64,000 nt of DNA from an uncultured Rickettsiales bacterium (GTDB taxonomy: Bacteria > Pseudomonadota > Alphaproteobacteria > Rickettsiales > UBA1997): positions 4,351 through 68,350 of the forward strand of contig CAJQHT010000030.1 of NCBI GenBank assembly GCA_905478245.1. The letters are read 5' to 3'. Positions 5,369-54,840 of the stretch are shown in pieces (positions within the stretch are counted from its first letter, which is position 1; each line of letters starts with the position of its first letter). Below the pieces are notes generated by a model, which was given only the letters and a program-made list of their open reading frames with translations, made no database searches and had not been told where the DNA came from. The position numbers and the translations under genes are program-made.

Positions 5369-5537
5369 TACCATTTTAACTTCTAAAACAGTTATTTTAT
5401 TAAATGATTAAATTCGTTATCTTTTTAGTTAAAATTGATAAAAAGCCTCGTACAATATGTTCATATTGCAGCTCGTTTTTTACCAATTTTACCATAAAAA
5501 TATTTAGAATTTAATTCATTTATAAGTTAGAATGGTA
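5369..5537 (+). mobile_element. Palindromic MITE-like element, variant 2 (full length)
   Basis: Termini are TACCATTTTAACTT...AAGTTAGAATGGTA. The two arms are similar to each other internally, for example ATGATTAAATTCG...AAAATTGATAAAAAGCCTCG versus the reverse complement of the ATGAATTAAATTCT...AAAATTGGTAAAAAACGAG arm. TTA flanks lie at 5366-5368 and 5538-5540. The centre and TIR core are shared with variant 1. Confidence 0.8.
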
Positions 5538-5633
5538 TTATCTATAAATCAAAAACTTGGGTGTTAATTAAAAAAATCAAAATTTTGATTTACAGACAAT
5601 CCCCTTAACGACAGTCTAACAGAATATATATAT

Positions 5634-9230: not shown

Positions 9231-9250
9231 TACCATTTTAACTTTACAAT
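9231..9250 (+). repeat. Solo MITE terminus (variant 2 TIR)
   Basis: TACCATTTTAACTTTACAAT is preceded by TTA (9228-9230). It matches the left end of the 5369 element and lies in the divergent DAHP synthase/pheA intergenic region. Confidence 0.5.
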
Positions 9251-9301
9251 TATCAAGATATTTTATAAAATTTAAGAAAATTAATTAATTTAAATATCAA
9301 A

Positions 9302-12743: not shown

Positions 12744-12790
12744 TACCAAATCCCAACTTTAATGAATTAAATTCTAAATAATTTTTTAGA
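12744..12790 (+). repeat. Partial MITE arm (variant 1 TIR fused to variant 2-type interior)
   Basis: TACCAAATCCCAACTTTAATGAATTAAATTCTAAATAATTTTTTAG is preceded by TAA (12741-12743) and ends 6 nt before the trpS start. Confidence 0.6.
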
Positions 12791-12796
12791 CAAAAT

Positions 12797-13777
12797 ATGA
12801 AAACTGTTTTTTCAGGAATACAGCCATCCGGCAATTTACATATTGGAAACTATTTCGGATCAATTGCTAATTGGATAGATTTGCAAAATAATCATAAGTG
12901 TATTTTTGGAATTATGGATCTTCATGCCATTACAGTTCAGCAAAACCCAAAAGAATTGCAAAAAAATATTCTTCAATGCGCAATCATCTATTTAGCTTGC
13001 GGTATAGATCCTAAAAAATCAATTATCTTTACTCAAAGCAGTGTCAAGGAACATGCAGAGCTAGCCTGGATCTTGTCTTGCTTTACACCACTTGGATGGC
13101 TTAATCGCATGACTCAATTTAAAGAAAAATCCCTAACATCTAATAATCAAAATTTAGGACTCTACGCCTATCCAGCACTTATGGCAGCAGATATTCTTCT
13201 TTATAAAACCAATATAGTTCCAACGGGAGAGGATCAAAAGCAACATTTAGAATTAACCAGAGATATTGCCCTTTCAATGAATAATCATTTTAAAACTGAA
13301 TTTCTACAAATTCCAGAACCATTAATAATAGGTGAAAATAAAAGAGTAATGTCCTTAATTGAAGGATCATCAAAAATGAGTAAGTCCGACCCAAGTGAAT
13401 ATTCCCGTATAAATCTTAGTGATGATAGCGAGATTATTGCCAAAAAATGTAAAAAAGCCAAAACAGACTCGGAAAATATTATTACTTACGATAAAAAAAG
13501 ACTTGAATTATTTAATTTAATCAATATTTTTGCAGCTTGCGAGAATAAAAAACCAGAAATACTCGCTAAAAAATATCAAAATAGCGGCTTTGGTACATTT
13601 AAGAAAGATTTCTCTGAAAGTCTAATTAATAAGATTATACCTATACAAAAAAATATTAAAGATTTAAATAATAATCTAGATTATGTTAAGGACATAATAG
13701 AGCAAGGTCATGATAAAGCCAGAGAAATAGCTTCTCAAAATTTAACAGAAATTAAAAAAATTATCGGATTAGCCTAA
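12797..13777 (+). CDS. trpS: Tryptophan--tRNA ligase
   Basis: SGIQPSGNLHIGNY carries the HIGH-type motif and KMSKS is present. 326 aa. Confidence 0.95.
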   Translation: MKTVFSGIQPSGNLHIGNYFGSIANWIDLQNNHKCIFGIMDLHAITVQQNPKELQKNILQCAIIYLACGIDPKKSIIFTQSSVKEHAELAWILSCFTPLGWLNRMTQFKEKSLTSNNQNLGLYAYPALMAADILLYKTNIVPTGEDQKQHLELTRDIALSMNNHFKTEFLQIPEPLIIGENKRVMSLIEGSSKMSKSDPSEYSRINLSDDSEIIAKKCKKAKTDSENIITYDKKRLELFNLINIFAACENKKPEILAKKYQNSGFGTFKKDFSESLINKIIPIQKNIKDLNNNLDYVKDIIEQGHDKAREIASQNLTEIKKIIGLA

Positions 13778-16451: not shown

Positions 16452-16637
16452 TACCAATTCTTAATCTTTAAAATTAAGTTAAAATAATAAATAATCTAAC
16501 TTCATATTTTTTAATTAAAATCTACAAAAAGCCCATAAAAAATATTATGAAATATGAACATACAGACTACTCTTTTTTATAATTTTTATCTAAAAAATAT
16601 TTTGCCTATATCATTCATTAAAGATTAAGAATTGGTA
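16452..16637 (+). mobile_element. Palindromic MITE-like element, variant 1 (full length)
   Basis: TACCAATTCTTAATCTTTAAAATTAAGTTAAAATAATAAATAATCTAAC...TGCCTATATCATTCATTAAAGATTAAGAATTGGTA. TTA flanks at 16449-16451 and 16638-16640. Same orientation as the 23826 copy. Confidence 0.85.
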
Positions 16638-16640
16638 TTA

Positions 16641-17087
16641 TTAATCAGATAATCCTTTTGATCTTCTTTCCTCCATCATGGCTACCCAGCCACTTTTCGC
16701 CCTAATTCTTCTAGCATTAATTCTTTCCTTAAGTTCAACCGCCCTATTATCTTTAGCATATTTTTCACGCCATTTATTTTTTTCTTTTAAGTTTCGTTCT
16801 CTTTTTTCCTTTTTCCTATCGTCCTTTTTCTTGCTTAACCCCCTACTTACTAAATCAATAGTGATTTGTCGATTTTTATCATGCAATCTTTTATGGTGCA
16901 TAATAATATTATCAACAAACATGCGAAACCTCCTTCTAGCCATCTTCTTTCCCTTGGATCTTGACATAGTTTTTAAACCTGCCGCACCAAATAATAAAGA
17001 ATAAACACCAGAACCGCTCGGCAGAGATCTGCCAGTCTTGGCCATACTGGATATTGCCCCTATTGATGTCGAATCTATATAGCGCAT
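16641..17087 (-). CDS. Orphan highly basic hypothetical protein bracketed by inverted MITE copies
   Basis: 148-aa ORF. The alternative start MSRSKGKK would give about 108 aa. The K/R/E-rich tail reads KKKDDRKKEKRERNLKEKNKWREKYAKDNRAVELKERINARRIRAKSGW. I recognise no family. The sequence is visibly less AT-rich than its surroundings. The opposite-strand frame is also open, so coding status is not certain. Confidence 0.5.
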   Translation of the reverse strand: MRYIDSTSIGAISSMAKTGRSLPSGSGVYSLLFGAAGLKTMSRSKGKKMARRRFRMFVDNIIMHHKRLHDKNRQITIDLVSRGLSKKKDDRKKEKRERNLKEKNKWREKYAKDNRAVELKERINARRIRAKSGWVAMMEERRSKGLSD

Positions 17088-17139
17088 AAACTATTGGTTA
17101 AAGAAAAGATCTTAATATTAAAATTTAAAAAACACATTG

Positions 17140-17310
17140 CACCAAATCTAAAGCTTTAATGAATGATGTAACTAAAGATTTTTTCCAAGAAAAATTATAA
17201 AAAAGTCGTCAGTATGTTCATATTTTAACGAGGCTTTTTATGATTTTAATCAAAAAATATAAAGTTAGATTATTTATTATTTTAACCCATTTTAAAGTTG
17301 GGAATTGGTA
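17140..17310 (-). mobile_element. Palindromic MITE-like element, variant 1 (full length, one tip degenerate)
   Basis: The right roughly 95 nt are near-identical to the 35507 copy (...GAGGCTTTTTATGATTTTAATCAAAAAATATAAAGTTAGATTATTTATTATTTTAACCCATTTTAAAGTTGGGAATTGGTA). TTA lies at 17311-17313. The left tip has decayed to GCACCAAATC. Confidence 0.8.
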
Positions 17311-17382
17311 TTATACAACATTACTTAATTTTGTGCAAGTTATTTAATGAAGAAAAAACTTTAATATTGCAGCAAATTATTC

Positions 17383-17427
17383 AAAAAATATTGTGCCTGT
17401 ATCATTCATTAAAGGTGGGAATTGGTA
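17383..17427 (+). repeat. Half MITE (right arm of variant 1)
   Basis: AAAAAATATTGTGCCTGTATCATTCATTAAAGGTGGGAATTGGTA is followed by TTA at 17428-17430, which is the reverse-strand TAA stop codon of mnmE. Confidence 0.75.
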
Positions 17428-18756
17428 TTATTTACCAATACAAAAACCAGAAAATATCTTATCCAACACATCATCAACCTCCACCCTTCCTGATATTTTT
17501 CCTAAATTTCTAATAGCAACTCTTAGATCCTCACTTGCTAGTTCAATTTCTTTATTTAAAGAAAATTCTTTTAAACTATCTATAGTTTCACCCAAAATAT
17601 CGCGATATCTAGCTCTTGTAATTAAAGGATTAGAGTTATTTAAAGTTATTTTTTTAATTTTACTTTCAATTTCTTCCAGCAATATATCTAAATTAATTTT
17701 ATTTTTAATTGAAACTAAAATTGGCCTAAACTCAGCTATTCTAGCTGGTATTTCCACCTCCCTTAAATCAATCTTATTAATCACAATCAAAGAATCCTCA
17801 TCAATTAATTCCAGATTAGCATAATCAAAATTTTCAATATCATCACCATTAATAACTAGAATTTTTAAATCAGATTCATTAGCCTTCCTTAGAGATCTTT
17901 TCACGCCTTCCTGCTCAATAATGTCATTAGAATCCCTAATGCCAGCAGTATCAGCTATTACAACTTTAAAACCTGCAATCTGTAAAGCTACCTCAACAAT
18001 ATCTCGCGTTGTTCCTGCTATATCAGCAACAATTGCCACATCGCTTTTTGCTAAATAATTAATCAGGCTAGACTTACCAGCATTAACTTGACCAATAATA
18101 GCTAAGGATAGGCCATTTTTTATCTTAAAACCAATTTTATTATCGTCTAAATGTTCTAATATTGCTAAATTTAGCTTATTTACCCTATTCTCCAAATCAT
18201 CGATAATATTTTTAGGTAAATCTTCATCAGGAAAATCAATAAAAGCTTCTAAATTAGCCATAATATCTATTAATTCACTTCTCCAATCTTCATAAATTCG
18301 ACTCAAATCACCATTCATTTGTCTCATTGATTGTCGATGTTGCTGCCTGGTCTCGCTTTTAATTAAATCTGCTATTGCTTCAGCCTGAATTAAATCCATC
18401 TTACTGTTTAAGACTGCAATTTTACTAAATTCACCAGGATCAGCCATTCTAACATCGTCAATTTCACTTAAAATCGCCATAATCCTCTCCAAAACATAAA
18501 CCGAACCATGAATATTAATCTCCACAACATCTTGACCCGTAAAGCTATTTGGACCCTTAAAATAAGTAATTAAAGCTTGATCCAGCTCTTCCTGTAAAAT
18601 AGGATCAATTATTTTGCATAAAGTTGATTTTCTGTCTATCAAATCTTGATTTATACCAAGAAATTGCATGCAAGAAAGAGTTTTATCCCCAGAAATTCTT
18701 AAAATAATAACAGCGCCACTAGAAATAGCGGTAATGGGAGCAAATATTGTAGCCAT
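17428..18756 (-). CDS. mnmE: tRNA modification GTPase MnmE (TrmE)
   Basis: 442 aa with FTGQDVVEINIHGS, G-domain motifs (GQVNAGKSSL, DTAG, NKID) and the C-terminal CIGK motif. Confidence 0.95.
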   Translation of the reverse strand: MATIFAPITAISSGAVIILRISGDKTLSCMQFLGINQDLIDRKSTLCKIIDPILQEELDQALITYFKGPNSFTGQDVVEINIHGSVYVLERIMAILSEIDDVRMADPGEFSKIAVLNSKMDLIQAEAIADLIKSETRQQHRQSMRQMNGDLSRIYEDWRSELIDIMANLEAFIDFPDEDLPKNIIDDLENRVNKLNLAILEHLDDNKIGFKIKNGLSLAIIGQVNAGKSSLINYLAKSDVAIVADIAGTTRDIVEVALQIAGFKVVIADTAGIRDSNDIIEQEGVKRSLRKANESDLKILVINGDDIENFDYANLELIDEDSLIVINKIDLREVEIPARIAEFRPILVSIKNKINLDILLEEIESKIKKITLNNSNPLITRARYRDILGETIDSLKEFSLNKEIELASEDLRVAIRNLGKISGRVEVDDVLDKIFSGFCIGK

Positions 18757-19833: not shown

Positions 19834-19852
19834 TTAAAGATGAGAATTGGTA
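19834..19852 (+). repeat. Solo MITE terminus (variant 1 right end), degenerate
   Basis: TTAAAGATGAGAATTGGTA is followed by TAA, 16 nt upstream of the argC start. Further element-like debris (GTCGTCAA..., ATACCATTTAA) follows up to about 19940. Confidence 0.45.
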
Positions 19853-23721: not shown

Positions 23722-23780
23722 AAATACACAAAAATTAATAATCTTGATTTAAAAAATATAGATAAAACTATTTTTTAAAT

Positions 23781-23822
23781 AAAAATATTTAGAATTTAAT
23801 TCATTTATAAGTTAAAATGGTA
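23781..23822 (+). repeat. Half MITE (right arm of variant 2)
   Basis: AAAAATATTTAGAATTTAATTCATTTATAAGTTAAAATGGTA is almost identical to 5496-5537. Its flanking TTA (23823-23825) is shared with the next element. Confidence 0.75.
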
Positions 23823-23825
23823 TTA

Positions 23826-23998
23826 TACCAATTCCCATCTTTAAAATGGGTTAAAATAATAAATAATCTAACTTTATATTTTTTGATTAAAATCATAAAA
23901 AGCCTCGTTAAAATATGAAAATACTGACGACTCTTTTTTATAATTTTTATCTAAAAAATATTTTGCCTGTATCATTCATTAAAGCTTTAGAATTGGTA
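23826..23998 (+). mobile_element. Palindromic MITE-like element, variant 1 (full length, reference copy)
   Basis: 173 bp reading TACCAATTCCCATCTTTAAAATGGGTTAAAATAATAAATAATC...TGCCTGTATCATTCATTAAAGCTTTAGAATTGGTA. TTA flanks lie at 23823-23825 and 23999-24001; the latter is the lpxD stop codon on the minus strand. Confidence 0.9.
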
Positions 23999-25033
23999 TT
24001 ATTTAGCTGGCTTTTTTATTAAGCTTAATAATTTTAATGTCATTCTATGCCAATCACGAATTGGTAAAGCCGGGTAACCACCAACAGATTGCATTGCATC
24101 GACTGATTTAACCACACCGGAAGCGCCAGCTATCTTAGCTCCATCGCCAATTTCAATATGACCATTAACCGAAGCATTGCCACCAATTTGACAAAATCTG
24201 CCAACTTTAGTACTTCCAGCAACGCGAGAAGCTCCAGCCATCACTGTGCCATAGCCAATTTGCACATTATGGGCTATTTGAACAAAATTATCTAATTTTA
24301 CCTGATCGGAAATTATAGTATTCTCAATCGCACCGCGATCTATACAGCTATTAGCACCAATCTCAACATCATTACCTATTATCACCATGCCAATTTGTAA
24401 AATTTTATGATTTACACCTTGATCATGGGCAAAGCCAAAACCATCTTGACCAATTTTAGTGCCACTATGAATAATAATATTATCACCAATTTTACTATGA
24501 GAAATATTAACTAAATTTGAAATTTTAGCATTTTTACCAATTTCAACATTATCACTAATAACACTATTAACCCCAATAAAAGAATTATCGCCAATTTTTA
24601 CCTTATCACCCACATAAGCACCATCCATAATAGTCACATTCTGACCTAATTCGGCATTTTTACTAATTGTAGCAGTTTTAGAAATTTTATCATTAACTAT
24701 AATTTCATTCTCTTCAAAAAAATGATTTAATAGCTTAGCATAGGCAAAATATGGATTTTTATTAATTAAAGCAATAACATTTTCTGGTTTTTTTGGTAAA
24801 TTATTCTCACCAATAAAGCAAAAACCAACATTACTATCAATAAGCTTATTTAAGTAAGATCCTGAGCTTAAAAAAGAAATTTCAGTATTACTGCCAGCTT
24901 CCAAACTATTGATATTTGTTATTCTTTGATCTAAATCTATCTTAATATTAGTCTCTAAGGTTGAATCAGTTATTTTTAATATTTCTTTTAAAGTTAAAAA
25001 CTCAAACTTCTTTTTAAAAAATTTATTATTCAT
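23999..25033 (-). CDS. lpxD: UDP-3-O-acylglucosamine N-acyltransferase
   Basis: 344 aa with left-handed beta-helix hexapeptide repeats (IGDNxxI / IGxNxxI throughout) and an LpxD-type N-terminal domain. Confidence 0.92.
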
Positions 25034-34104: not shown

Positions 34105-34917
34105 TTAATTATTCTTAATTTTATTATTAATTCGAGCTTCTCTATTTTGCATAAAAGCACTCCGCGCAGTAGCGTAAGGATCAAAAGAATTTTCTCTTAA
34201 ACCAGAGACTATATTCAACAAGCCCTCTCTTTTATCAATCAAAGAAATAACCGTAAGAGCCAAGAACGCATCGTCACTAACCAAATTATCACCATTAACA
34301 GTAACAGACTCAATAGAAATAACATCAAAAGCAATTCTGGCAGCAAAACCAGTAAAATCACGCAAATTTGAAGGACCTAAGAAAGGTATCACCAAATATG
34401 GACCAGGTCCAACACCGTAAGAAGCTAAAGTTTGACCAAAGTCCTCTTTATTATAGTCAATATCTTTTGCCGAAGCTACGTCAATAAAGCCAAGCAAGCC
34501 AATAGTGCTATTTATTAAAAAGGCTGAAAAGCTAGACATTGTATTTTCTGCACTACCCTGTAAAATTGAATTAAATATTGTAAATGGGGACGCTAAATTA
34601 CTAATAAAATTTCTAATAGATATTCGTGCTTTTTTTGGTATTGATTTCTGGTAACCGCGAGCAATATGTTCAAAGAAATAACGATCCGTTACATCGTTAA
34701 ATTTATATATTATGCGATTAACAGGCTCTAGCGGATCGTAAACCTCAGTATGCTCTCGTTTTAGATCAAAATTAAAATCTCCATAATCTTCAAAATCACT
34801 ATCTGTGTAAAGCTTATCATCGCTAAATGAATATGAGTTTTGCAATATTATAAAATTAGATAAAGCAATAATTATAATAATATTTAATATTTTAATTTTA
34901 TCTATAAATATTTTCAC
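34105..34917 (-). CDS. mlaA: MlaA/VacJ family outer-membrane lipoprotein
   Basis: DPLEPVNRIIYKFNDVTDRYFFEHIARGYQ...IRNFISNLASPFTIFNSILQG and GPYLVIPFLGPSNLRD, which are hallmark VacJ motifs. Confidence 0.85.
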   Translation of the reverse strand: MKIFIDKIKILNIIIIIALSNFIILQNSYSFSDDKLYTDSDFEDYGDFNFDLKREHTEVYDPLEPVNRIIYKFNDVTDRYFFEHIARGYQKSIPKKARISIRNFISNLASPFTIFNSILQGSAENTMSSFSAFLINSTIGLLGFIDVASAKDIDYNKEDFGQTLASYGVGPGPYLVIPFLGPSNLRDFTGFAARIAFDVISIESVTVNGDNLVSDDAFLALTVISLIDKREGLLNIVSGLRENSFDPYATARSAFMQNREARINNKIKNN

Positions 34918-34920
34918 AGG

Positions 34921-35478
34921 CTATTTATCCTTTTTATTATCATTACCACCGCCCTTATTACCCTCTTCATTATTCTTTTTATCATCCTTTCCTAAGGCAA
35001 GGTTATTATATATAATATCAGACAAGGAAATTTTCTCTCTTTGTGATTCCTCTTTTTCCAGCTCTTGATTTTTTTTCAGAATATAATTCTGCGCTCTAAT
35101 TTTAATTTGTTTAATTTTTTCATCAATATTTTGATCAATCTCATATAATCTTCTCATTGATTTTTTAGCTGCAGAATTATTCTCTTTAATTAAATAACAA
35201 TATATTAAACCAAAATGAGCTCTTTTATCCTCGGGCCAGAATTTCCTAACTATTTTTAATCTAAAAACTGTCTCACTAATATTTCCTTTTTTAAAATGCC
35301 TATTAGCTAAATCGTAATTTGATTTATGAAGATCTTGCATTTTTTCTGCAATAACATCAATCTCAAGTAACATATTTTTTAAAAAACCAGAAGCCCCATT
35401 GATAAACTTAATAGTCTTAGATGGCTCTTTATTTTTACCTTTATCTTTTTTTATAAGATTTTTAAAATATTTAAACAT
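34921..35478 (-). CDS. Hypothetical protein, TPR-like helical, with a low-complexity K/N/G tail
   Basis: 185 aa immediately upstream of mlaA on the same strand with a 3-nt gap. The helical repeat-like core reads YDLANRHFKKGNISETVFRLKIVRKFWPEDKRAHFGLIYCYL. The tail reads KDDKKNNEEGNKGGGNDNKKDK. Confidence 0.5.
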   Translation of the reverse strand: MFKYFKNLIKKDKGKNKEPSKTIKFINGASGFLKNMLLEIDVIAEKMQDLHKSNYDLANRHFKKGNISETVFRLKIVRKFWPEDKRAHFGLIYCYLIKENNSAAKKSMRRLYEIDQNIDEKIKQIKIRAQNYILKKNQELEKEESQREKISLSDIIYNNLALGKDDKKNNEEGNKGGGNDNKKDK

Positions 35479-35506
35479 TTAATATTATTTATTAAAATGG
35501 GTTTTA

Positions 35507-35679
35507 TACCAATTCCCATTCTTTAATGAATGATACAGGCAAAATATTTTTTAGATAAAAATTATAAAAAACGAGTCGTCAATATGTACATATTACGCGA
35601 GGCTTTTTATGATTTTAATCAAAAAATATAAAGTTAGATTATTTATTATTTTAACCCATTTTAAAGATGGGAATTGGTA
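35507..35679 (-). mobile_element. Palindromic MITE-like element, variant 1 (full length)
   Basis: 173 bp. Its reverse complement matches the 23826 copy exactly over the first approximately 83 nt and nearly so elsewhere, except the central approximately 20 nt (here AATATGTACATATT, a perfect palindrome). TTA flanks at 35504-35506 and 35680-35682. Confidence 0.9.
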
Positions 35680-36464
35680 TTAACATAAGATTGAACATAA
35701 ACAATATCCCAGCTGGCGATAATTTTAGAATCTAAATTAAATTTTTTCAAATAAAAATTGTTTAAATTTTCAAAATCTCTTTTTTTAATGAATTTATTAT
35801 GTTTCTTATTTGAATATGAAGCCCCTATATTTTTCATAGATCTTAATAATTCATAGACATTATCATAATATAAATCAATTCTTTGTTTTTTTAATATTTT
35901 ATAAGAGCCAAAATTGCTATTACACAAGATTTTCTCTAAATCTTCTAATTTTATAAAATTATTAATTGCTAAATCAATATTTAAAACCCTACAAGACTCT
36001 CTTAATTGCCATAAAGTATCTTCAGTAAAAATATTAAATATAAAAGCTGATCCAGATTTTAAAATCTTAGCAATATTATTAAAAGCAATATTCAGATTAC
36101 CCATCCACTGTAAAGCCAGAGAAGATAAGGCTAAATCAAAATAGGAATCTTTAATAGGCAGATTCTCAATATCGGCATTTATATTATTAACAAATTTACC
36201 ATCATCACTATTATTCAAAAACATTTCCAAGGAAATATCTAGTTGAAAAATATTTTTATCAATAAAACCGTTATTTATAATATTTTTTCTCAAAAAACCA
36301 CTACCACTACCTAGATCAATTATATTTTTTGATTTATCTATATCTTTTTTCGATAAATTAAATAAATTATTAGCAATTTGACGCTGCAAATCAGCTTTCT
36401 TGTCATAATTAGAAGAAAAACGATTAAAATTTGATTTGATTTTTGCTTTATCAACAATAAACAT
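35661..36464 (-). CDS. Class I SAM-dependent methyltransferase, BioC-like
   Basis: FNRFSSNYDKKADLQRQIANNL plus the SAM motif IIDLGSGSGFL and LSSLALQW. The last six codons (NTNSHL) and the stop are encoded inside the MITE at 35507-35679. Confidence 0.7.
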   Translation of the reverse strand: MFIVDKAKIKSNFNRFSSNYDKKADLQRQIANNLFNLSKKDIDKSKNIIDLGSGSGFLRKNIINNGFIDKNIFQLDISLEMFLNNSDDGKFVNNINADIENLPIKDSYFDLALSSLALQWMGNLNIAFNNIAKILKSGSAFIFNIFTEDTLWQLRESCRVLNIDLAINNFIKLEDLEKILCNSNFGSYKILKKQRIDLYYDNVYELLRSMKNIGASYSNKKHNKFIKKRDFENLNNFYLKKFNLDSKIIASWDIVYVQSYVNTNSHL

Positions 36465-36475
36465 AAAATATATAT

Positions 36476-37570
36476 TTAAGACGAAACTTTCTTCTCAATT
36501 AATGAAACTATATGATCCACCAACTCATCTGAATTAATTTTATGATTAGGCTTGCCATTTAAATAAACATTATGTCTATTATTATTTCCACCAGTAATGC
36601 CAATAGAAGTATGAGCTGCTTCACCAAGACCATTCACCACACAACCCAAAATTGAAACATCCAAAGACTCCTTGATATGTTCTACTCTTTTCTCAACCTG
36701 CTCTACAATCTTAATGACATCAAAAGCCTGACGAGCACAAGATGGGCATGAAATAATATTAATTCCCCTACTGCGCAAACCAAGTGATTTTAAAATATTA
36801 TAAGCAACTTTAATTTCCTCTTTTGGATTGGCAGATAAAGATACTCGCATCGTATCACCAATTCCATCAAACAATAATATTCCTAAACCAATTGATGATT
36901 TTACTGTTCCAGGCATCAAGGCGCCAGACTCCGTAATTCCAATATGCAAAGGATAATCACAAACTTTAGCTAAAGCACGATATCCAGAAATAGCTAACAA
37001 AGCATCAGAAGCTTTTACGCTAATTTTTATTTCAAAAAAATCATTATCTTCTAAAATTTTAATATGATTTAAAGCTGATTCAACCAAAGCCTCTGGTGTT
37101 GGAGTTTTATATTTATCAAGCAAGGATTGCTCAAGAGAGCCAGCATTAACACCTATCCTAATTGAACAACCGTAATCTTTTGCTGCTTTTACAACTTCTG
37201 CAACTTTAGCATTGCTGCCAATATTGCCCGGATTTATTCTTAAACATTTCGCGCCAGCTTTTGCTGCCTCTATTGCTCTTTTATAATGAAAATGAATATC
37301 AGCTATAATTGGCACATCGCACTTTGGAATAATTTTCTTTAAAGCTTCACTAGAATCGGAATCAGGCACAGAAATACGCATTAAATCAGCACCGAGCTCC
37401 GCACATTCATTAACCTGACGAATGGTAGCCTGTATATCAGTGGTCAGGCTATTGGTCATGGATTGCACTGAAATTTTTTCACCTCCGCCAATTCCAACAT
37501 CTCCAACAAATATCTTTCTTGACTCACGTCTCTCTATCTTGCGATATGGTCTAACATCTTCTATTGTCAT
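36476..37570 (-). CDS. ispG: 4-hydroxy-3-methylbut-2-en-1-yl diphosphate synthase
   Basis: [14 protein letters not shown], and the C-terminal Fe-S cysteines (ISCPSCAR...GCVVNGLGE). Confidence 0.95.
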
Positions 37571-38711: not shown

Positions 38712-38735
38712 TACCAAATCCTACCTTTAATCAAG
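38712..38735 (+). repeat. Solo MITE terminus, degenerate
   Basis: TACCAAATCCTACCTTTAATCAAG preceded by TAA (38709-38711). Confidence 0.4.
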
Positions 38736-39424: not shown

Positions 39425-40828
39425 ATGCCACCAGGCAATATTGTTAAAAAAATATTTAAAAATATCGTGAAACACCCTTTTAAAAGCTTGTTTATTATAG
39501 CCATTATCAGTATTGCATTTAGTTTATATTCTAATTTATCTCATTCAGTCAATCAAGAAAACCTATATCAGGCAGCTGACGAGAAACAAAATATAAAATA
39601 TAAAATTAACAAAAATTCAACGTCAACCTTAAAAGTTAATAATGACCTAATACAATCAATCATTGATAAAGTAAAGGAAAGTTACGTTGAGGAAAAAACA
39701 AATGATGAATTAGCAGAAGCTGCAGCAAATGGCATCTTAACCTCTCTTGATCCGCACTCATCATATCTCTCTCTAGATGGCTTTAAGGAACTACAAGTTC
39801 AAACCAAAGGTGAATTTGGTGGACTTGGTATTGAAATCACCATAGACAATTCTTTAATAAAAATAGTTTCACCAATAGAGGGAACTCCAGCATATAAAGC
39901 CGGCATAAAGGCAAGTGACTATATTAGCAAAATTAATGGCAAATCCACAATAGACATCACCATAGAAGATGCAGTTAAAAAATTAAGAGGCAAGCCAGGA
40001 ACAAAAGTAAATATAACCATTTTAAGAGAAGGTAAAGAAAACCCTTTAGAGTTTTACATAAAAAGAGAGATCATAAAAATTAAAGCCGTCAGATCAAAAA
40101 GATATGACGATGTAATCTATGTCAAAATAAATAGTTTTTCAGGGCAAGCTGAATCAGAAGTTACCTCAATCTTAAAGAAATTAACAAAAGAAATTGGCGC
40201 AAAAAAAGTTAAAGGAATAGTTCTGGATCTGAGAAACAATCCAGGAGGATTATTAAATCAATCCGTAAAAGTTAGTGATATTTTCCTAGATAAAGGAAAG
40301 GTAATTGTTTCCATAAAAGGAAGAGATAAAGGTGAAAATATAGAATATAAAGACCAGGAAGATCAAATTCTAACAAAAAATATTCCAGTTGCAGTTCTTA
40401 TCAATGAAGGCTCAGCCTCAGCTTCTGAAATTGTAGCGGGAGCATTGCAAGACAATAAAAGAGCATTAATACTCGGCACAAAATCATTCGGAAAAGGTTC
40501 AGTTCAATCAATAATTCCACTAAAAAATAACCAGGGAGCCATAAGAATGACAACCGCCCTTTATTACACCCCGTCAGATATATCAATCCAGGCAAAGGGA
40601 ATAGTTCCTGACATCATAATCACAGAGGCTAAAATAGAAAAATCAGAAGAAAAGAAACATGTCAGATCAGAATCGTCTCTGAATGGTCATATTAAAAATA
40701 ATGCCAGTAAAAATAAAAAGAAATCTAACATAAAGGATGACAATATAGATATCTATAATAAAGACTACCAATTAGCTAGAGCATTAGACTTAGTAAGGGG
40801 CATTAGTTTCTATAAAAGTGATCTATAA
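39425..40828 (+). CDS. ctpA: Carboxy-terminal processing protease (S41 family)
   Basis: N-terminal anchor, PDZ domain (GEFGGLGIEI...VSPIEGTPAYKAGIKASDYISKING), and the catalytic region LDLRNNPGGLL...NEGSASASEI...GTKSFGKGSVQ. Confidence 0.9.
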   Translation: MPPGNIVKKIFKNIVKHPFKSLFIIAIISIAFSLYSNLSHSVNQENLYQAADEKQNIKYKINKNSTSTLKVNNDLIQSIIDKVKESYVEEKTNDELAEAAANGILTSLDPHSSYLSLDGFKELQVQTKGEFGGLGIEITIDNSLIKIVSPIEGTPAYKAGIKASDYISKINGKSTIDITIEDAVKKLRGKPGTKVNITILREGKENPLEFYIKREIIKIKAVRSKRYDDVIYVKINSFSGQAESEVTSILKKLTKEIGAKKVKGIVLDLRNNPGGLLNQSVKVSDIFLDKGKVIVSIKGRDKGENIEYKDQEDQILTKNIPVAVLINEGSASASEIVAGALQDNKRALILGTKSFGKGSVQSIIPLKNNQGAIRMTTALYYTPSDISIQAKGIVPDIIITEAKIEKSEEKKHVRSESSLNGHIKNNASKNKKKSNIKDDNIDIYNKDYQLARALDLVRGISFYKSDL

Positions 40829-41805: not shown

Positions 41806-41850
41806 TACCAATTCCCATCTTTAATGAACAAATATAACTAAATATTTTTT
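41806..41850 (+). repeat. Partial MITE arm (variant 1)
   Basis: TACCAATTCCCATCTTTAATGAACAAATATAACTAAATATTTTTT preceded by TAA (41803-41805), 4 nt after the surA-like stop. Confidence 0.6.
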
Positions 41851-41944
41851 AATATAAATTATATTGATTATTATTTATGAAATTAGTATTATGCTGGAAT
41901 GTTTTTCTTAACAGATTTTTTAACAAAATAAACTTACGAATAAA

Positions 41945-48289: not shown

Positions 48290-48356
48290 TACCATCTTTA
48301 AAACGTCTTAAAATAATAAGCAATCTAACATCATGTTTTTTGCTAAAAATTATTTA
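48290..48356 (+). repeat. Partial MITE arm (variant 1, with a 5-nt deletion in the TIR)
   Basis: TACCATCTTTAAAACGTCTTAAAATAATAAGCAATCTAACATCATGTTTTTTGCTAAAAATTATTTAG. The preceding TAA (48287-48289) is the stop codon of the transglutaminase-like gene. Confidence 0.65.
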
Positions 48357-54785: not shown

Positions 54786-54840
54786 AATTGGTATTATACC
54801 AAATCCCAACTTTAGAATAGGTTAAACCTATTTAACGAAT
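54786..54840. repeat. End-to-end MITE termini sharing one TTA (8-nt right end plus about a 44-nt left arm)
   Basis: AATTGGTA (54786-54793), TTA (54794-54796), then TACCAAATCCCAACTTTAGAATAGGTTAAACCTATTTAACGAAT (54797-54840). Lies in the convergent ilvH/comF gap. Confidence 0.55.

Follow-up and report, generated by a model that had tools for sequence, protein, structure and literature searches.

The palindromic repeat at positions 35504–35682 of the window, that is, of the whole 64-kb stretch of DNA analysed here, belongs to a family of elements which very probably (we put this at roughly 85%) are non-autonomous MITEs. They consist of terminal inverted repeats (TIRs) of 19–20 bp around a non-coding, roughly palindromic filler, and the same ends bound an insertion sequence (IS) of 1108 bp that is of the IS630 type. 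The elements are shorter than about 300 bp, carry TIRs and are flanked by a target-site duplication for which empty sites exist; the autonomous IS with the same ends is located outside the window. Within the IS630 family, this pair of IS and MITE appears to be a new and distant member, atypical in duplicating 3 bp where TA is the rule.

The window has a GC content of about 30%, contains one tRNA-Thr gene and is made up of housekeeping and biosynthetic genes (lpxD, purK, bioC, mnmE and truA as well as genes for DAHP synthase, acetolactate synthase and ATP synthase). It is 99.97–100% identical to overlapping stretches of a 90-kb marine metagenome contig (ENA ERZ1764447 NODE_110), the stretches compared covering together about window positions 1–46,464. 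Identical contigs originate from the SOLA coastal station, and related sequences come from MAGs labelled Rickettsiales. At 40368–40526 on the minus strand there is a match to Rfam Rp_sR47 (Rickettsia sRNA47; 66 bits, gathering score 60); it lies antisense inside a ctpA-like peptidase S41 gene (39425–40828, plus strand), and a conserved coding sequence, rather than an sRNA, may account for it.

Within the window the family comprises four full copies of 171–186 bp, one variant of 169 bp and about ten solo or short ends, located between genes. A profile built from the four copies recovered exactly the four that the preliminary description had listed (E values of 7e-39 to 1e-50) and also picked up the diverged 169-bp variant (5369–5537) together with several solo arms. 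The 173-bp element at 35507–35679 (minus strand) has two near-intact TIRs and is enclosed by TTA at 35504–35506 and at 35680–35682. The second 173-bp copy (23826–23998, plus strand) lies between TTA at 23823–23825 and TTA at 23999–24001, the former being held in common with the adjoining right end of a partial variant-2 copy (23767–23822, plus strand; 90% identical to 5482–5541). TTA is likewise found on both sides of the 186-bp copy (16452–16637, plus strand), in which both TIRs take the variant form TACCAATTCTTAATCTTTAA, and of the variant-2 element of 169 bp (5369–5537, plus strand), which has the ends TACCATTTTAAC...AGAATGGTA and a central hairpin like that of variant 1. The 171-bp copy at 17140–17310 (minus strand) is flanked by TTG at its left, degenerate end (CACCAAATC) and by TTA at the other.

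The remaining members are shorter. An element of about 87 bp (41806–41892, plus strand) has an exact left TIR and the flanks TAA and TTA, and a solo arm at 17377–17427 (plus strand) ends in ...GGGAATTGGTA and is followed by TTA at 17428–17430. TAA precedes a solo arm with an internally deleted TIR (TACC-ATCTTTAAAA; 48290–48353, plus strand), a solo end (12744–12803, plus strand) and a solo degenerate TIR (38712–38730, plus strand). A solo TIR with one mismatch (19834–19852, minus strand) has a TAA flank on the plus strand, which reads TTA from the outside in. The solo end at 54797–54827 (plus strand) follows ...AATTGGTA-TTA, which is what remains of an abutting end, and a variant-2 solo end (TACCATTTTAACTTT; 9231–9260 with an approximate inner boundary, plus strand) is preceded by TTA. 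These readings agree with the preliminary description, which had placed TTA on both sides of three full copies and of the 5369–5537 variant, and TTA or TAA in front of the solo ends at 9231, 12744, 38712, 41806 and 48290.

The TIR of the window elements, TACCAATTCCCATCTTTAA, is far more frequent than expected, the 19-mer having 10 matches in the window with up to three mismatches (0.05 expected). Each copy is about 61–69% identical to its own reverse complement, and the predicted fold of 35504–35682 is one long hairpin (−45.1 kcal/mol, z = −7.7), in line with the long imperfect palindrome noted earlier. All six reading frames of the window copies contain stop codons. Terminator and promoter scans of two copies revealed nothing convincing, the sole match being a weak CCCAT...ATGGG hairpin within one arm.

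An arm of 83 nt was said to be identical between the 23826 and 35507 copies, and positions 23825–23907 and 35598–35680 are indeed 100% complementary, with the other arm 94% identical over 66 nt. Similarity between copies ends at the element plus its triplet, and the flanking genes are unrelated, so that an origin in larger segmental duplications is practically excluded. One weak match (74%) extends leftwards from the 23826 and 35507 copies for about 20 nt; it would speak for such an origin, but it fits the remnant of a variant-2 end. Specifically, these 20 nt (35484–35503 and 23803–23822) resemble the variant-2 right end (..AAAATGGTA and ..AAAATGGGTT), which suggests that both copies inserted beside pre-existing ends. 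In the 16452 copy, TACCAATTCTTAATCTTTAA replaces ..TTCCCATC.. at both ends (16452–16471 and 16618–16637), a change concerted on the two arms that could derive from a master copy with such an end or from arm-to-arm correction. This copy and the 17140 copy are full copies in inverted orientation with a 148-aa, very basic ORF between them (16641–17087, minus strand), for which a family search returned no match. Together they form a unit of 859 bp (16452–17310) with TTA at both its borders, as in a composite transposon, an interpretation that is not required because the left copy has its own TTA on either side.

Conservation of the flanking triplet was assessed in a census in which the 19-mer served as query in scans of species-representative genomes and metagenomes. 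At least about 190 loci were retrieved, all from freshwater and marine MAGs or contigs whose genes are 65–70% identical to those of the window at the DNA level; with other fetched loci included, about 200 related loci amounting to 1.3 Mb were assembled. Among the matches listed, 246 non-redundant ends have a TTA or TAA flank in 85% of cases, in nearly equal numbers (TTA 105, TAA 103). Outside the terminal TACC, the same ends have T at position −3 (90%), A or T at −2 (93%) and A at −1 (93%), and only a mild bias beyond the triplet. The matches listed also include 85 non-redundant two-ended elements, of which 58 have an identical TWA on both sides, a further 10 have TWA on both sides but in unequal form, and in 17 at least one side is not TWA; where both sides are TWA, the triplets are thus the same in 58 of 68 listed pairs (binomial p = 2.4e-9).

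Empty sites are available at two loci of related genomes. Locus L034 reads AATAAC-TTA-[169 bp]-TTA-CATACT, and locus L103, whose flanks are 91% identical, reads AATAAC-TTA-CATACT. In a second pair, L009 carries a 157-bp element and one extra TTA that are absent from L051 (95% identical); as this site lies beside a solo end, the pair could also result from recombinational deletion between two ends of the same orientation. For the window's own copies no empty sites were found, the nearest relative having a BioC only 58% identical and all contigs of the same population being filled. Two alternative ways of reading the triplet were considered. A TA duplication with one element-borne extra base predicts a middle base that is fixed by orientation, and the data disagree with this: TTA..TTA and TAA..TAA both occur within each of three subfamilies (8:3, 6:5 and 1:3), which excludes this model and leaves a duplication of 3 bp. 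A TA duplication with elements ending in CC...GG fails at both empty sites. The direct TTA...TTA thus represents a genuine target-site duplication of 3 bp, as had been deduced from the window, and the two proposed checks, conservation of TTA or TAA across copies and empty sites at orthologous loci, both came out in its favour.

A partner for these ends emerged from the related genomes. Ends paired at distances of 600–5000 bp enclosed no autonomous copy, only housekeeping genes (PriA, VirB3, Ppa, Era, SdhB, Lpd and Lgt); a generic search for TWA-flanked inverted repeats 600–3500 bp apart gave chance matches only, and the multi-copy ORF families among the loci were restricted to ABC-transporter-like paralogues. 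In the MAG JAHXBS, four contigs break off exactly 231 nt into one kind of end, and others 75 nt into a second kind. The 231-nt end encodes the C-terminus of a transposase (...IIQPPYSPELNPIEKLWQYIKDH...), and the 75-nt end leads into MPKTIIDE...SIHRWAKQI, a helix-turn-helix N-terminus; a decayed transposase copy with LWFYDESRFG, VMDGAGWH and LPPYSPELNPIE is found in L066 and L170. A search with both termini returned hundreds of proteins that fall into two classes, one of about 158 aa with helix-turn-helix domains and one of about 100–200 aa with DDE_3. The complete IS, 1106–1108 bp in length and bounded by the exact 19-mer, is present on contigs that encode these proteins (loci L209–L218).

The two ORFs of this IS differ by one frame, and the change falls on a stretch of nine A residues (TTTTAAAAAAAAATC; L209 3460–3500, IS positions about 560–580), which looks like a site of transcriptional slippage or programmed frameshifting. 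The copy in L210 is 2 nt shorter. A conceptual fusion of 329 aa across the A9 run scores 219 bits on NCBIfam model NF033545 (IS630 family transposase; cut-off 100), matches Pfam DDE_3 (E = 3e-25) and HTH_33, and includes the motifs FFDES, IIMDGAGWH and PPYSPELNPIE. Judged by this predicted protein, the IS with the identical 19-bp ends is a member of the IS630 family (DDE_3, Tc1/mariner-like), and its closest annotated plasmid-borne relatives are rhizobial IS630-family genes with at most 32.5% identity. Of its ten loci, five have TTA on both sides (two long NCBI contigs among them), one has TAA on both sides and four have unequal triplets; these four are short metagenome contigs that represent three distinct sites and may be chimeric. 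An unrelated DDE_Tnp_1 (IS4/IS5-like) gene is located 1.1 kb from the IS630-type copy of L210 (L210 5132–5908; GCA_038141345.1) and has no bounding TACCAATTCCC ends.

From the length of the duplication, the preliminary description had linked the family to PIF/Harbinger-Tourist or IS5 elements. This was a reasonable lead, given that the duplication is 3 bp of the form TWA and that both groups are reported to make 3-bp duplications (PMC4122938), but it is overturned by the IS630 type of the same-ended IS. Tourist-like MITEs moved by a PIF/Harbinger or IS5-family (ISL2/IS1031-type) transposase are now very unlikely: the only coding element found with exactly these ends has a transposase of the IS630 family, ORFs of the IS5 or Harbinger type between such ends are absent from the matches listed for the 1.3 Mb of related loci, and the DDE_Tnp_1 gene near the IS of L210 lacks them.

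The family is diverse across these genomes. Its many subfamilies range from 34 to 241 bp, with modes at 159 and 169 bp, and have unrelated interiors, only the 19–20 bp ends being in common. The smallest elements are perfect palindromes of 34 bp, that is, two fused ends. A 153-bp palindromic element in L033 (107–259) and a 34-bp perfect palindrome in L162 (10797–10830) occupy the same site with 100% identical flanks, which indicates that the 34-bp forms arise by in-place collapse of the palindrome's centre. Abutting elements with one triplet in common are frequent (GGTA-TTA-TACC, with GGTA-TWA-TACC common across loci). The element is also present in MAGs that were submitted under the names 'Rickettsia typhi', 'Ulvibacter sp.' and 'Candidatus Actinomarina sp.' (loci L007–L058 of CAMDRL, L004–L067 of JBLHPX and L003–L035 of CAXPEK), in which many contigs break off 126–146 nt inside the repeat. 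These species labels look wrong; where compared, the genes resemble those of the window, identity to the window being 70% for L003, and L009 matches a Rickettsiales MAG at 95% identity. A literature search with the end sequence returned primers only, without relevant context. Neither this TIR nor a bacterial IS630 member that duplicates TWA turned up in the papers that could be searched; the family may nevertheless already be catalogued in ISfinder. Transposases, but not these repeats, are dealt with in a study of aquatic Rickettsiales MAGs (10.1101/2023.01.31.526412).

When stop codons of ORFs converging on an element were plotted against the element end, 20 of the 66 cases among the matches listed fell into two peaks, at −3 (12) and at +16 (8). 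The stop at −3 is the duplicated TAA itself, and that at +16 is the TAA at TIR positions 17–19. In the window, the right TTA of the 23826 copy provides the TAA stop of lpxD (23999–25033, minus strand), the TTA beside the solo end at 17427 provides that of mnmE (17428–18756, minus strand), and the last six codons and the stop of bioC (35661–36464, minus strand) lie inside the TIR of the 35507–35679 copy (..YVNTNSHL*). Homologues of bioC end earlier than the window gene. The closest syntenic relative, L203, whose GcpE is 84% and whose BioC is 58% identical, has a bioC spacer of 16 nt, and no family member was found in 20.8 kb.

The Rickettsiales-like setting, the high intergenic density and the palindromic units are also features that one would expect of host-maintained palindromes of the REP/BIME or Rickettsia palindromic element (RPE) type, spread by recombination or some unknown route instead of DDE transposition. 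We consider such an origin highly improbable in view of the precise 3-bp duplication, the empty sites and the cognate IS. In addition, RPEs are noted for in-frame coding insertions (PMC10969869), whereas all frames of the present elements are closed, and an NCBIfam search gave no match to an RPE-domain model at E up to 10.

Whether the family is still active in the lineage of the window is a separate matter. Analysis of Pfam gene tables and tblastn with the IS630-type transposase detected neither a transposase nor a remnant of one in the window, as had been reported, or in the approximately 75 kb read of its 90-kb contig; the IS was seen in other genomes only. No insertion polymorphism was found, every contig of the same population carrying the same insertions, and the four copies are 79–93% identical over their whole length. 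The preliminary characterization as an 'apparently recently mobile' palindromic MITE thus holds for the MITE family with its TIRs, whereas recent mobility is only weakly supported. A low-coverage contig, L079 (ERZ1764452 NODE_48820), is 93.7% identical to window positions 34532–37317 as a whole, but identity rises to 100% over the element and the sequence directly beside it; a mosaic strain or a chimeric assembly may be the reason.

It is accordingly quite conceivable, if somewhat short of an even chance, that the family is a fossil whose IS630-type transposase has since been lost, the copies being inert or exapted as hairpins, for instance as mRNA 3' structures. The lack of a transposase in the contig read, the divergence of the copies, the many solo or degenerate ends, the uniform insertions in the population and the strong RNA fold are all compatible with this idea. 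It is less easily reconciled with the arm of 83 nt that is identical in two copies, with the failure to predict a convincing terminator, and with the exact 19-bp ends, which are kept across genomes whose genes are only 65–70% identical. That the ends are conserved far beyond the host genes suggests that, somewhere in these lineages, a transposase still selects for them.

For the MITEs as derivatives of an IS630-type element, we propose the following course of events. The transposase would bind the common ends and excise the DNA between them, the excised DNA would be joined to a T-W-A target opened by a staggered cut of 3 nt, and repair would leave TTA...TTA or TAA...TAA. Insertions at or just before gene ends would survive because TAA is a stop codon, restored either by the duplicated TAA or by the TAA at TIR positions 17–19. 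The argument for mobilization in trans is the identity of the ends, since the window elements and the 1108-bp IS have only the terminal repeat in common. From this identity we infer that the MITEs were probably moved in trans by the IS630-type transposase through cut-and-paste chemistry, and that the genome of the window presumably has, or had, such an enzyme. More tentatively, and with somewhat less than even confidence, we suggest that a bacterial lineage of IS630-family transposases with a 3-nt stagger at T-W-A has spread through marine and freshwater groups labelled Rickettsiales, accompanied by swarms of MITEs that have only the TIRs in common with it, its ends staying almost invariant while host genes diverged to 65–70% identity, and that its TAA-compatible target lets it land harmlessly on stop codons, so that compact, transposase-poor genomes tolerate a high repeat load.

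These results offer a named enzymatic source, of the IS630 type, for dense palindromic repeats in aquatic lineages labelled Rickettsiales; in the related Rickettsia, such repeats have long been without a mechanism. They also illustrate that duplication length alone misassigns transposon families. If an IS630-type transposase with a natural 3-nt stagger indeed exists, it would be a useful comparison for target spacing in Tc1/mariner elements. At a practical level, the repeats break metagenome assemblies, with many contigs ending inside them, and they rewrite the C-termini of genes such as bioC.

Among known systems, the IS630 family provides the closest match. Typical features present here are a partner IS of about 1.1 kb with short TIRs, DDE_3 and HTH domains, the motif PPYSPELNPIE and two ORFs that need a frame change, as well as short derivatives with only the ends in common and AT-rich, TA-containing targets. 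RUP of Streptococcus pneumoniae with IS630-Spn1 is an example of an IS630 MITE. Different from these are the hosts, which here are aquatic MAGs mostly labelled Rickettsiales, and the duplication, which is TTA or TAA and not the TA classically duplicated by IS630 and Tc1/mariner elements (PMC4122938, PMC7386202). TAA duplication is reported for most fungal Fot elements of the IS630-Tc1-mariner group (PMC7386202). Since Fot elements belong to the same supergroup, a 3-bp duplication is plausible, but atypical, for a bacterial member. Zator elements of this supergroup also duplicate 3 bp; Fot and Zator are, however, eukaryotic and have transposases of different clades, and the likeness considered here is at the superfamily level. 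PIF/Harbinger duplicates TWA. With PIF/Harbinger-Tourist and IS5 elements the family shares 3-bp duplications in AT-rich targets (PMC4122938) and many short derivatives, but its cognate IS is of the IS630 type and has no second, Myb/MADF-like ORF. RPEs, too, are dense palindromic repeats of Rickettsiales, 100–170 bp in length, that sometimes alter gene ends; the present elements are nevertheless not RPEs in the described sense, from which they are set apart by closed frames, the absence of RPE-domain matches, clear TIRs, the duplication and the cognate IS, and they touch only the 3' termini of genes. Finally, the Correia elements of Neisseria are likewise abundant intergenic MITEs with conserved TIRs, TA-containing targets and size variants due to internal deletion, and they are orphans in most genomes. 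They duplicate TA, however, and no transposase is known for them, whereas the family described here has an identified partner IS and a 3-bp duplication.
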